A stretch of DNA of 22,408 bases, from IMG/VR virus record IMGVR_UViG_2869970738_000007, one strand, 5' to 3'. Positions 19,024-22,408 of this stretch are shown here, piece by piece. The stretch comes from a virus (Duplodnaviria > Heunggongvirae > Uroviricota > Caudoviricetes). The translations under genes were made by a program, and so were the position numbers. Every line of letters begins with the position of its first letter. Within the stretch, counting starts at the first letter, position 1. A model generated the notes under the pieces. It did no database searches. It was not told the origin of the DNA and saw nothing but the letters and a program-made list of their open reading frames with translations.

Positions 19024-19350
19024 TCAGGGTGCGGAAGGACTAAAGATAAACGTTTTCTTCACGCCTTTACACGGCCTGTCCTTCTCAAATCGCCATTTTG
19101 CCATCGCCTTTACAACCTGCTCATCAAACAGATGGTGCGGCTCTGAACGAATAAACTCAATTCGGGTGACAGTACCATCAGCACCAATATCAAACCTCAC
19201 ATCAACCCGTCCCTTTATATAATTTGCCGCTGCATAGGCCGGATATTGTGGTAATGCCTTAACCAACTGTCGGGGCATATCTGTTTTATGTTGCGTACAG
19301 CCCATAACCAGAGAAGACAACAAAATAATTAACGGAAGATTTCTTTTCAT
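19024..19350 (-). CDS. Prophage-encoded lipoprotein with a TonB C-terminal-like domain
   Basis: ATG at 19350 with GGGGA six nt upstream. Signal peptide and lipobox MKRNLPLIILLSSLVMGC, Thr at +2. Mature part LPQYPAYAAANYIKGRVDVRFDIGADGTVTRIEFIRSEPHHLFDEQVVKAMAKWRFE aligns by eye to the TonB C-terminal domain (YPA..A...G.V.V.FD...DG.V....S.P..F...V..AM..WR.E). Confidence 0.6.
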   Translation of the reverse strand: MKRNLPLIILLSSLVMGCTQHKTDMPRQLVKALPQYPAYAAANYIKGRVDVRFDIGADGTVTRIEFIRSEPHHLFDEQVVKAMAKWRFEKDRPCKGVKKTFIFSPSAP

Positions 19351-19688
19351 TTTCATTCCCCGCACAGATAAAAATAAGTCTTATTCTAACAATGCCGCCC
19401 TGTCGGTCATCAATCCTCTGCTTAATGGCAACGACAATTATCCGACTTAAATCACAAATCAGACACATGACATAACAGGGCTTGCGAGGTAACACATCGT
19501 CCTGTTTCTTCCACCATCGCACCGGACTGGCGACTATGAGGGGACAACGCCGCGCTCCGTTAACGCGGTAAACCCCGGTGTGTATCGTTTTAGATTATCC
19601 CCGCACACTCGCGCAGAGGAGTCTCCCTGTCGGGCTGCGGTCTCTGTTAATGAGGGAATACAGCGACGATACGGCGCATCAGCAAAAC

Positions 19689-20157: not shown

Positions 20158-20271
20158 TCACCACCAACGGATTGCCCAGACCAGAACAGCAATTGCCACA
20201 ATACGAATGGCAAAAGCTGCCGCTCTTGTTAAATCCAGACTGGCTGGCGTCTCCACTTCAATGCCTTTCAT
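20158..20271 (-). CDS. Hypothetical 37-aa hydrophobic peptide immediately upstream of Rz
   Basis: Hand-translated: ATG at 20271-20269 with GAGG nine nt upstream; MKGIEVETPASLDLTRAAAFAIRIVAIAVLVWAIRWW; its stop TGA at 20160-20158 sits one base before the Rz ATG (TGAtATG). Too short to appear in the supplied ORF track. Confidence 0.3.
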   Translation of the reverse strand: MKGIEVETPASLDLTRAAAFAIRIVAIAVLVWAIRWW

Positions 20272-20491
20272 AATGGACAACCTCAGAAAGAATCTTTTAT
20301 ACTTCCTCACAGGGAAAGCACCTCCCTCACCATAATTTCTCCCTTGCCTTACTCAAGGTCAGAAAACACAAAACCCCGCTTGCTGCCAACAAACGGGGTT
20401 TTTACTTTTATTCACTTAGGTTTTGCCAGTTCACAGGACTTCGTGTTATCCGCCCGCGTGAGCAAGCGTCATTTTTCAGCAAAATATTCTG

Positions 20492-21025
20492 CTACCTGTC
20501 GATACCCCAGCACGCCAGCGCGCTCTCCTGGTCACGCCGCGATACCTGCCCGTAACAGTTATTTGAGCGGTTCCGACAGTCCCTGCCGCCGTCATATATC
20601 CAGCGACGAATTTCAGCACATGCACCTTTCCGGTCTCCGGCGTTCAGTTTCCGGTAAAACGTTGAGCTGAAACACTTACCGGGGCCAATGTTGTACGGAC
20701 AGAATGACGCGATCCCCGATTTCTGAGGTTCGGTCAGCGGCACTTTGATGTTTTTCTCCACCCATGCCAGCGCCTTATCACGTTCAATGGCGTTAACCTG
20801 GTCGCATTTCTCCTTCGACAACTTCATGCCCGGGACGACAGGTTTACCATCCACCAGAATGGCACCGCGGCAGATGGTCCAGATACCCGCGCCATCACGG
20901 TATGCCGTGGTGTGGTTACCTTCCTTTTCATCCAGAAACTGGTCGAGAATGTCAGGCGCAGGCGCACCAGCGGCAATCAGCGCCAGAACGGCAGCCGACA
21001 GGCCGTATCTGATTTTTGCGTTCAT
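20492..21025 (-). CDS. Phage endolysin, lysozyme type with an N-terminal signal-arrest-release-like segment
   Basis: ATG at 21025; N-terminus MNAKIRYGLSAAVLALIAAGAPAP is Gly/Ala-rich and weakly hydrophobic; lysozyme-like body ...EKEGNHTTAYRDGAGIWTICRGA.... Confidence 0.9.
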   Translation of the reverse strand: MNAKIRYGLSAAVLALIAAGAPAPDILDQFLDEKEGNHTTAYRDGAGIWTICRGAILVDGKPVVPGMKLSKEKCDQVNAIERDKALAWVEKNIKVPLTEPQKSGIASFCPYNIGPGKCFSSTFYRKLNAGDRKGACAEIRRWIYDGGRDCRNRSNNCYGQVSRRDQESALACWGIDR

Positions 21026-21130
21026 GGATATTTATCAGGATTTATCGGTTTCTGAGCCCTGGATATGTTTATCAGTTCCAGCCTGTTGCCTCAGGCTGCT
21101 AACAGGTCAATACAATCATGAGGATTATTT

Positions 21131-21403
21131 ATGGACAATAACACCATTTCTCTACAGGAGTTGCTCGACAGCATTTCCAGGCTTCGGGAAGACGTGAATA
21201 CCCTTACCGTCGCCTTCTCATATCTGGCATTCTCAATTCCAAGGGAACAGATGCAATCAACGCTGGCATCAATCCAGTTTGAATCATGCAATCCCAAATG
21301 GTCTCAGGAACAACAAGACTCTTTCAGGCGGCTTGCTGTATTACTGGATGAAAAATATGCTGGTAAAATTACCATTTCGGCGGACTCTTCAGAGAACCCG
21401 TAA
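21131..21403 (+). CDS. Hypothetical 90-aa protein, antisense to the late (lysis) operon
   Basis: ATG at 21131 with GAGGA six nt upstream, TAA at 21401. Translation MDNNTISLQELLDSISRLREDVNTLTVAFSYLAFSIPREQMQSTLASIQFESCNPKWSQEQQDSFRRLAVLLDEKYAGKITISADSSENP is helical and soluble-looking; no family recognised. Its 3' end overlaps the YdfR-like gene convergently. Confidence 0.35.
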   Translation: MDNNTISLQELLDSISRLREDVNTLTVAFSYLAFSIPREQMQSTLASIQFESCNPKWSQEQQDSFRRLAVLLDEKYAGKITISADSSENP

Positions 21404-21713
21404 TTATTCCCGGTAGTTTTCCTCTGTAGGTTATCAACACATCCTGCGCCTCTAAAATTACGGGGCGCTTTTCCGGCGACTGCTCATCCCCTTCACATAA
21501 CCCGGCAGCAACATCCAGGAAGACCTGTCTGATGCTCCTTCTGGCTGCTGCCTCATAAAACTCCAGCGCGGCACCTTCAACACGGTCCAGCGAGATGTCC
21601 AGGTCAAAAATTTCACCGTCAAAGCGTTTTTTGTCCCGTAACGCTAAAGTTACCGTAACTTTATTCTCAAAATTGCGGATCCCTTTCACAATCAGTTCAT
21701 AGTTTTGAGTCAT
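21369..21713 (-). CDS. YdfR-like phage protein (DUF1327-type, family recalled from memory), the gene normally found between holin and endolysin
   Basis: ATG at 21713 with GGAGAG upstream; translation MTQNYELIVKGIRNFENKVTVTLALRDKKRFDGEIFDLDISLDRVEGAALEFYEAAARRSIRQVFLDVAAGL.... The track ORF extends upstream with no plausible start. Confidence 0.6.
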   Translation of the reverse strand: MTQNYELIVKGIRNFENKVTVTLALRDKKRFDGEIFDLDISLDRVEGAALEFYEAAARRSIRQVFLDVAAGLCEGDEQSPEKRPVILEAQDVLITYRGKLPGIITGSLKSPPKW

Positions 21714-21775
21714 TGAATTACTCTCCCCGTGCAGCCTTACGACGGTCCTCTCTGATTTTGAAATACAGGTTAGTC

Positions 21776-22077
21776 TGAAGTGGCACACTGAATTTGGCCA
21801 CCTGAACAGAGGTGATATGCTCACCTCAGAACAACACAGGTGCTCCAATGAAAAAAAGAAATTTTAGCGCAGAGTTTAAACGCGAATCCGCTCAACTGGT
21901 TGTTGACCAGAAATACACGGTGGCAGATGCCGCCAAAGCTATGGATGTTGGCCTTTCCACAATGACAAGATGGGTCAAACAACTGCGTGATGAGCGTCAG
22001 GGCAAAACACCAAAAGCCTCTCCGATAACACCAGAACAAATCGAAATACGTAAGCTGAGGAAAAAGCTACAACGCAT
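21776..22077 (+). mobile_element. IS911-like (IS3 family) left-end fragment, truncated by IS1 copy 4
   Basis: Begins TGAAGTGGCACACTGAATTTGGCC at 21776 (IS3-family TG terminus); contains the 5' part of orfA; ends abruptly at the IS1 terminal repeat. Confidence 0.75.
21848..22077 (+). pseudogene. IS911-like transposase OrfA, truncated
   Basis: ATG at 21848; translation [76 protein letters not shown], then reads into IS1. Confidence 0.7.
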
Positions 22078-22408
22078 GGTGATGCTGCCAACTTACTGAT
22101 TTAGTGTATGATGGTGTTTTTGAGGTGCTCCAGTGGCTTCTGTTTCTATCAGCTGTCCCTCCTGTTCAGCTACTGACGGGGTGGTGCGTAACGGCAAAAG
22201 CACTGCCGGACATCAGCGCTATCTCTGCTCTCACTGCCGTAAAACATGGCAACTGCAGTTCACTTACACCGCTTCTCAACCCGGTACGCACCAGAAAATT
22301 ATTGATATGGCCATGAATGGCGTTGGATGCCGGGCAACTGCACGCATTATGGGCGTTAGCCTCAACACGATTTTACGTCACTTAAAAAACTCAGGCCGCA
22401 GTCGGTAA
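22078..22408 (+). mobile_element. IS1 (copy 4), left part only; continues past the window end
   Basis: Terminal repeat GGTGATGCTGCCAACTTACTGAT begins at 22078; internal sequence matches copies 1 and 3. Confidence 0.9.
22133..22408 (+). CDS. insA: IS1 InsA, GTG start
   Basis: Translation (M)[42 protein letters not shown]...; 91 aa, ends at the window edge. Confidence 0.9.

Follow-up and report, generated by a model that had tools for sequence, protein, structure and literature searches.

A conserved antisense gene of the Ybl58/PHROG 2411 family on a discrete insert in a lambdoid lysis cassette

The 90-codon open reading frame (ORF) that opposes the lysis genes in this viral DNA was identified, by its conservation among relatives, as a genuine protein-coding gene. 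The window analyzed here is the whole 22,408-nt stretch of IMG/VR record IMGVR_UViG_2869970738_000007. The ORF sits on a discrete insert, placed antisense to late transcription between the endolysin gene and a ydfR-like gene. The best reading of the data, to which we assign a probability of about 0.6, is that the ORF is a protein-coding moron, in the sense quoted in PMC2629481, whose product, a small modulator that binds another protein, is made in the lysogen. The narrower proposition, that the product is made while late transcription is off and works by binding another protein, is advanced only tentatively. The gene is already annotated as hypothetical in approximately one-fifth of complete E. 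coli genomes, and the finding is, to that extent, correct but ordinary.

The focal ORF occupies positions 21131–21403 of the plus strand, with its ATG at 21131 and a TAA stop codon at 21401–21403 (90 amino acids plus the stop). A Shine-Dalgarno-like GAGGA (21120–21124, plus strand) is located 6 nt 5′ of the ATG, and the sequence GAGGAT upstream of the ORF is identical across all aligned E. coli-type alleles. Both neighboring genes are encoded on the minus strand. The endolysin gene (20492–21025), which lies downstream of the insert in the late operon, specifies a 177-residue phage lysozyme (Pfam Phage_lysozyme, E=3e-26; PHROG 7, endolysin), and the ydfR-like gene (21369–21713) specifies a 114-residue DUF1327 protein (Pfam, E=7e-43). 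The sequence and the ORF list agree with the preliminary description, which had placed a plus-strand, 90-residue ORF with a ribosome-binding site between these two genes, and the coordinates bear out the 35-nt tail-to-tail overlap with the ydfR-like gene that it reported (21369–21403). The length of the ORF is by itself unremarkable, the window containing 63 ORFs of at least 90 residues; it is because the ORF is conserved, and not because of its length, that it can be regarded as more than a product of chance.

The coding assignment is based on the behavior of the reading frames among homologues. The +1 frame was free of stop codons in all nine tabulated homologues, which represent several genera; every other frame was stopped in at least some of them. 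Pairwise dN/dS values ranged from 0.10 to 0.43 wherever dS was not saturated, and the start position, the length (83–106 residues), and the motif ELL..I..L....N.L..AFSYLAF......E are kept down to approximately 25–30% identity in an alignment of 54 sequences. These comparisons indicate that the focal gene is under purifying selection. Its frame is without stops or frameshifts in the relatives, and so the prospect raised in the preliminary description, that the ORF would be broken in otherwise similar prophages, was not borne out.

In close E. coli alleles, dN/dS is equally low in the +1 frame and in the −2 shadow frame. This follows from the coincidence of the third codon positions in the two frames, and dN/dS alone therefore cannot assign the strand for such alleles. 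The frame is settled instead by the stop codons, since the +1 frame is never interrupted, whereas the −2 frame is interrupted in the window and in the Stx2k, plasmid, Citrobacter, Serratia, and Sodalis copies. The open −2 frame opposite the gene (minus strand; 21091–21297 in the window, 3081–3413 in L002, and 1644–1913 in L011) varies from 68 to 110 codons by allele, and its ends shift. A real minus-strand gene was considered and rejected, on account of this variable length, the stops in many homologues, and the un-protein-like character of the encoded sequence.

Alignment with the ORF-less cassettes of O157 and of strain RIVM_C039205 defined the inserted cassette as a 308-bp segment (21070–21377), which consists of 61 nt of upstream sequence followed by codons 1–82 of the focal ORF. 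ORF-less cassettes are known from K-12 Qin, O157, and RIVM_C039205, and the junctions are precise. In K-12 Qin, ydfR abuts rrrQ with no ORF between them; in the O157:H7 prophage and in RIVM_C039205, YdfR is 114–116 residues long, and 50–63 nt lead to the lysozyme start. Homology with the ORF-less cassettes extends from the lysozyme ATG to position 21069, and is resumed at 21378. The segment at 21026–21069 is thus the older ydfR-endolysin spacer, which is also present in the ORF-less O157 cassette and lies outside the insert. The preliminary description had credited the ORF with 105 bp of potential promoter space; the upstream interval does measure 105 nt (21026–21130), but only 61 nt of it came with the inserted cassette, and the remaining 44 nt belong to the older spacer.

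The right junction falls in codon 83, and residues 84–90 (ADSSENP) are therefore derived from the antisense strand of ydfR. The corresponding 3′ end of the ORF, comprising the rest of codon 83, codons 84–90, and the stop (21378–21403, plus strand), is native ydfR sequence read in antisense. Conversely, it is from the insert that YdfR obtains its last two codons (KW) and its stop; the protein ends in ...SPPKW here, as compared with ...TPPLA in the ORF-less O157 cassette. Three further observations agree with this junction: the Citrobacter homologue terminates at the position corresponding to residue 83, conservation within the family is lowest in the C-terminal tail, and the AlphaFold pLDDT falls below 50 exactly for residues 83–90. 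The GC content over the insert (300-nt windows) is 0.437, compared with 0.54–0.57 for the endolysin gene and 0.47–0.50 for ydfR. In strain 2012EL-2448 (L005, 2164–2568), a different hypothetical ORF of 134 residues, encoded on the late strand, occupies the same slot between ydfR and the endolysin gene, indicating that this junction is a recurrent insertion point.

The family to which the protein belongs had been catalogued previously. Residues 1–90 were matched to positions 1–90 of the 90-position PHROG 2411 profile (E=1.1e-58), and the Serratia and Atlantibacter homologues match the same profile. In E. coli genomes, PGAP annotates an identical protein, RefSeq WP_000369850.1, as a “hypothetical protein” at this position, and the UniRef name of the protein is “Ybl58”. 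PHROG 2411/Ybl58 and the focal ORF are one and the same family, with no difference between them, and the family is without an assigned function or a Pfam model. The preliminary description had seen no recognizable domain in the product; this holds with respect to Pfam and NCBIfam domains, but the protein does belong to a known, uncharacterized family. Literature searches with ybl58, WP accessions, peptide strings, DUF1327, and dinI/bssS/Serratia returned no relevant paper.

The gene is common in E. coli. The exact protein sequence was found on at least 1000 contigs. Of 5426 complete E. coli genomes, 1130 contain the 385-bp region with a coverage of at least 80%; set against the cassette-bearing genomes, the carriers number approximately 1130 among some 4400. 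The copy in the window is identical to the commonest E. coli allele, and E. coli B/BL21 carries an 86.5% allele (NZ_CP117469, 3196399–3196671). Carriers include the laboratory B strains, ST131, avian-pathogenic (APEC) strains, and Stx2k phages. Among 160 relatives in IMG/VR, 80 copies of the ORF were retrieved and all were intact; in 78 of these, the lysozyme gene lies upstream and ydfR downstream. Three database entries labelled “ybl58” (P0061, P0045, and P0127) are frameshifted or truncated versions of the gene, P0061 being out of frame after residue ~27 and back in frame at the C-terminus; a minority of gene copies are decaying or mis-sequenced.

Beyond E. coli, the reach of the family is limited. 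Protein searches recovered 62 proteins with the single sequence and 126 with a profile. Only 19 cluster representatives of the family were found among 1.84 billion, from which it can be concluded that the family is narrow. All named members are from Enterobacterales, apart from two entries labelled Pseudomonas. At 25–40% identity, the family extends to Citrobacter, Atlantibacter, Sodalis, Serratia, Chania, Gibbsiella, Chimaeribacter, and Acerihabitans, and further scans of IMG/VR, for which divergent members served as queries, recovered for the most part E. coli loci that had already been found.

Members of the family occupy several unrelated genomic settings. In Stx2k phages, the lysozyme has been replaced by an M15 peptidase and the holins are different, yet the block that runs from the old lysozyme ATG through the ORF to ydfR is kept, including the 61 nt of upstream sequence that belong to the insert. 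The homologue in Citrobacter meridianamericanus (60% identity) is likewise antisense and is flanked by a λ S-type holin gene and an ORF of 238 residues, with a tail-to-tail overlap of 14 nt. A 41%-identical homologue was found in Atlantibacter hermannii prophages and in two IMG/VR contigs, antisense between an M-like minor-tail region and tail gene L, and shares 7 nt with a small ORF of the late strand. The convergent partners in these three settings (YdfR, the Citrobacter 238-residue ORF, and a 71-residue ORF in Atlantibacter) are unrelated to one another. This indicates that the gene travels alone, and a conserved two-gene module formed with the convergent partner was rejected on the same grounds.

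The family is also found outside phage genomes. A subfamily on IncF plasmids (58–64% identity, 89–101 residues) is located downstream of an AIDA/pertactin-type autotransporter gene; the plasmid copies, represented by an E. coli IncF plasmid (L003, 4002–4280) and similar E. coli contigs (L026–L028), lie ~300 nt past the autotransporter gene and upstream of a gene for an AraC/GyrI-like regulator. The orthologue in Serratia marcescens, Chimaeribacter, and one further lineage is a lone chromosomal gene (X) in the order rne-pyrC-dinI-X-bssS-solA. These chromosomal orthologues share approximately 30–35% identity with the focal protein (L008, 5001–5282; L016 and L017, 5001–5270; L023, 5001–5276), and the copies between dinI and bssS follow the dinI terminator and have approximately 100–200 nt of their own upstream sequence. 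Further chromosomal copies are isolated genes. We know of no gene in the dinI-bssS slot on the map of E. coli K-12. These distributions show that the focal gene is mobile, and indicate that the family has been picked up repeatedly by temperate phages and IncF plasmids. The gene for the anti-adapter IraM is another plus-strand antisense insertion; several prophages with the focal ORF, including Stx2k phages, have it immediately upstream of the holin gene (L001, 4665–5000; L011, 2674–2997; L013, 3569–3892).

The product is predicted to be a small, soluble, acidic (pI ~4.5), three-helix cytoplasmic protein. AlphaFold2 modeling with the 54-sequence alignment (mean pLDDT 82, pTM 0.55) placed helices at residues 8–35, 38–52, and 59–77, with residues 83–90 predicted to form a disordered tail. 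In all eight members for which these values were computed, the pI was 4.4–5.5 and the GRAVY score was negative. For the protein encoded in the window, the pI is 4.5 and the GRAVY score is −0.43; by inspection, its longest hydrophobic run is ~12 residues, and no long hydrophobic segment, signal peptide, or lipobox was seen.

Searches for a function gave no match of substance. Pfam, NCBIfam, and PADLOC scans of the focal ORF and of the 54 family members yielded nothing above noise, and the focal ORF matched no lysis-protein, defense, or DNA-binding family. With PADLOC, the window protein gave no matches, and the best hit among the 54 members (E=0.004) was to a candidate model, seen in five members. 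A match to the NCBIfam “anti-silencing protein Mip” (E=0.037, over 15 residues) was rejected as chance; the best PDB sequence profile match, YibL at E=0.17, was also rejected. Fold searches returned only generic helical matches. Comparison with DinI, BssS, and IraM revealed no homology (hhalign probabilities of 0.08–0.14%). As regards membership in the lysis cassette, the ORF is on the opposite strand, and the lysis families match its neighbors (endolysin and Rz) and not the ORF itself.

The signals that might drive expression are weak. A standard sigma-70 scan found no site at threshold upstream of the focal ORF. A relaxed scan of four alleles gave TTGCCT-N19-TACAAT (21086–21116, plus strand) as the best promoter-like candidate within the insert; its spacer is over-long, and just 14 nt separate the −10 element from the ATG. 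The TACAAT element (21111–21116) is invariant in E. coli-type alleles, and the −35-like element reads TTGCCT or TTGAAT among alleles. A weak plus-strand candidate, TTATCG-N16-TATGTT (7/12 in the relaxed scan), lies in the older spacer (21026–21069), and both candidates are conserved among alleles. In the Citrobacter homologue, a promoter-like GGGACA-N17-TATTAT is located 32 nt upstream of the start. No plus-strand terminator was detected in the scan after the focal ORF. The RNA fold of 21395–21490 was no better than that of shuffled sequences (z = −1.1), and the 5′ and 3′ flanks likewise folded no better than shuffled sequence and matched no Rfam family. Reading of the window revealed no LexA box or other shared operator, and the upstream regions of the chromosomal orthologues have no shared operator, the dinI terminator being all that they have in common. 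Literature searches found no transcript, ribosome-profiling, proteomic, or phenotypic data for the gene.

The copy in the window resides in a damaged neighborhood. Alignment with an intact cassette (L001) breaks at ~21775, and what is left of the class II holin gene is a 3′ remnant (21718–21775, minus strand). An IS3-family insertion that begins at ~21776, which we take to be IS911-like, has truncated the holin gene, leaving ~58 nt of its 3′ end. The IS region spans 21776–22408; the IS3-family orfA encodes an HTH_Tnp_1 domain, and the element is itself interrupted by an IS1 (InsA, 22133–22408). Because the IS interrupts the holin gene, the lysis cassette in the window is defective and cut off from the late promoter, an arrangement typical of Shigella-like, IS-rich genomes; despite this, the focal ORF, ydfR, the lysozyme gene, and Rz are all still intact.

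Other small features of the late region were also noted. The gap between the endolysin gene and Rz is ~280 bp (20214–20491), compared with an overlap of rrrQ and rzpQ in K-12 Qin. It contains a hairpin (20370–20402) with a 15-bp stem between an A-run and a T-run, which is terminator-like on both strands. A 37-residue minus-strand ORF (20161–20271) with a hydrophobic C-terminus and no Pfam match ends 1 nt before the Rz ATG. The cassette may have gained this endolysin-Rz stretch as a second small insertion. Downstream of Rz/Rz1, a minus-strand ORF (19024–19365) encodes a small lipoprotein-like product with a TonB_C domain (E=9e-15); in a related prophage (L005), its PGAP annotation is “TonB family protein”, and it is probably another accessory gene of the late region.

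The arrangement can be compared with that of known late-region morons. λ bor is a neighbor of the lysis genes and is transcribed against the direction of the late operon; it is active in the lysogen, and its product, Bor, is a secreted lipoprotein. Like bor and other lambdoid late-region morons, the focal ORF is a small additional gene that shows up as an insertion when related late operons are set side by side, and, as with bor, it adjoins the lysis genes, opposes late transcription, and has a GC content below that of its flanks. Unlike Bor, to which it bears no sequence relationship, the product is predicted to be cytoplasmic, with neither signal peptide nor lipobox. The focal ORF also differs from the classical morons, in that it is without a clear flanking promoter and terminator, and in that its 3′ end is fused into the antisense of its neighbor. 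The proposal in the preliminary description that the ORF is a moron is accordingly upheld as to structure (a discrete insert, lower GC, portability, and independent contexts), but an own promoter was not detected at the scan threshold.

DinI, BssS, and IraM offer a second comparison. DinI binds RecA, and IraM binds RssB. The focal protein is of comparable size to these three (80–110 residues) and is, like them, encoded as a single-gene unit; the genes for DinI and BssS are the genomic neighbors of the chromosomal orthologues, and IraM is encoded by an antisense moron in the same prophage type. There is no detectable homology with any of the three, however, and the likeness is one of functional analogy only.

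The preferred reading can be set out as follows. In a lambdoid lysis cassette, a 308-bp, low-GC segment has entered between ydfR and the endolysin gene, opposite to late transcription. It brought with it ~82 codons, preceded by 61 nt of 5′ sequence in which there is a strong ribosome-binding site; from there the frame continues for seven codons into the antisense of ydfR, up to a stop. We infer that a weak promoter of its own could drive the gene in the lysogen, where the convergent late operon is silent, and that the product might bind a host (or phage) protein, in the manner of other small, acidic, prophage-borne modulators, rather than DNA, and without a part in lysis. Roles in DNA binding or lysis are considered unlikely because the protein is small, acidic, helical, and cytoplasmic. 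The same properties, together with the one-gene unit and the chromosomal home among stress and biofilm modulators, suggest a protein-binder made in the lysogen; size, charge, fold, and analogy are the whole basis of the protein-binding proposal.

Several rival explanations are given less weight, chiefly because conservation of the protein extends to places where there is nothing for it to be antisense to and where no lysis genes are nearby. One is that antisense transcription itself is selected and the protein is secondary, with an unterminated plus-strand transcript running into ydfR and the holin gene, and damping leaky or premature expression of the late lysis genes through interference or RNA pairing. 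All three independent phage contexts are antisense, with tail-to-tail overlaps of 35, 14, and 7 nt with the preceding late gene, and no plus-strand terminator was detected after the ORF. There is also a precedent in the P22 “ant moron”/sar antisense region (PMC2629481), which is likewise an insertion in a late operon whose transcription could alter a downstream late gene, and at which read-through into downstream late genes was changed; unlike that region, the focal insert has no regulatory RNA, repressor, or antirepressor. The protein sequence, however, is conserved to 30% identity in chromosomal and plasmid settings, the nucleotide sequence is not conserved between the phage contexts, and neither significant RNA structure nor an Rfam family was found. 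In the window itself, the late operon has already been severed by the IS, yet the ORF is intact. Selection on the antisense transcript is thus improbable. A lytic-cycle accessory protein that regulates lysis, for instance a cytoplasmic modulator of the holin, endolysin, or YdfR, and that is expressed upon induction and not in the lysogen, is slightly less probable still. In its favor, lysis cassettes provide two of the three phage contexts, and in the E. coli-type cassettes the ORF is always accompanied by a 114-residue YdfR allele and a class II holin gene, even where the endolysin module differs. The strand, however, is wrong for transcription from the late promoter, the protein has no transmembrane segment, and ORF-less cassettes with an equally long (114-residue) YdfR, a holin, and an endolysin are widespread; in addition, the Citrobacter neighbor is not a YdfR homologue, and other members reside in a tail operon, on plasmids, and at chromosomal loci without nearby lysis genes.

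Protection of the lysogen is the commonest role found for small prophage morons, and the gene could accordingly encode a superinfection exclusion, anti-defense, or anti-phage protein. The moron architecture and the prevalence in prophages fit such a role, and the product is small and acidic, like many inhibitor proteins. No meaningful match to a PADLOC model was obtained, however, and the chromosomal orthologues hold a conserved housekeeping/stress locus (pyrC-dinI-X-bssS-solA) in several lineages, which a role in host physiology fits better; a protective factor is therefore unlikely, if marginally less so than the antisense and lytic alternatives. That the ORF is non-functional, whether as a chance occurrence, as the shadow of some gene on the minus strand, or as a remnant in decay, is very improbable. 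The 63 comparably long ORFs of the window, a −2 frame that is open for 89–110 codons in some alleles with an equally low apparent dN/dS, and the existence of some truncated or frameshifted database copies could be taken in its favor. The low −2 dN/dS is nevertheless expected from the coincident third positions, the −2 frame is stopped in many homologues and has variable ends while the +1 frame is never interrupted, and the 54-sequence family has a conserved start, length, and motif, with 80 of 80 IMG/VR copies intact. A more elaborate scheme would combine a host-directed protein with an antisense effect. The family would then be an ancestral Enterobacterales small-protein regulator belonging to the pyrC-dinI-X-bssS stress/biofilm locus that has been captured by temperate phages at least three times, each time antisense in a late operon, and that serves both to reprogram the host stress response and to act as an antisense brake on lysis. 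This scheme is speculative, and is held to be about as improbable as selection on the antisense transcript.

Were this dual-purpose scheme to be true, a host stress pathway (SOS, RpoS, or biofilm) would be reprogrammed in E. coli lysogens (approximately 20% of complete genomes, B/BL21 and ST131 strains among them) through the binding of a host protein, while the unterminated antisense transcript would also brake the leaky expression of the lysis genes. The contribution made here is that the ORF has been shown to be real, its insert has been defined to the nucleotide, and the origin of the family has been shown; it is otherwise one more uncharacterized moron. As a target for knock-out, overexpression, or pull-down work, the gene would, if expressed, be cheap and well defined. 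It would then be a lysogenic-conversion factor carried by approximately one-fifth of sequenced E. coli strains.
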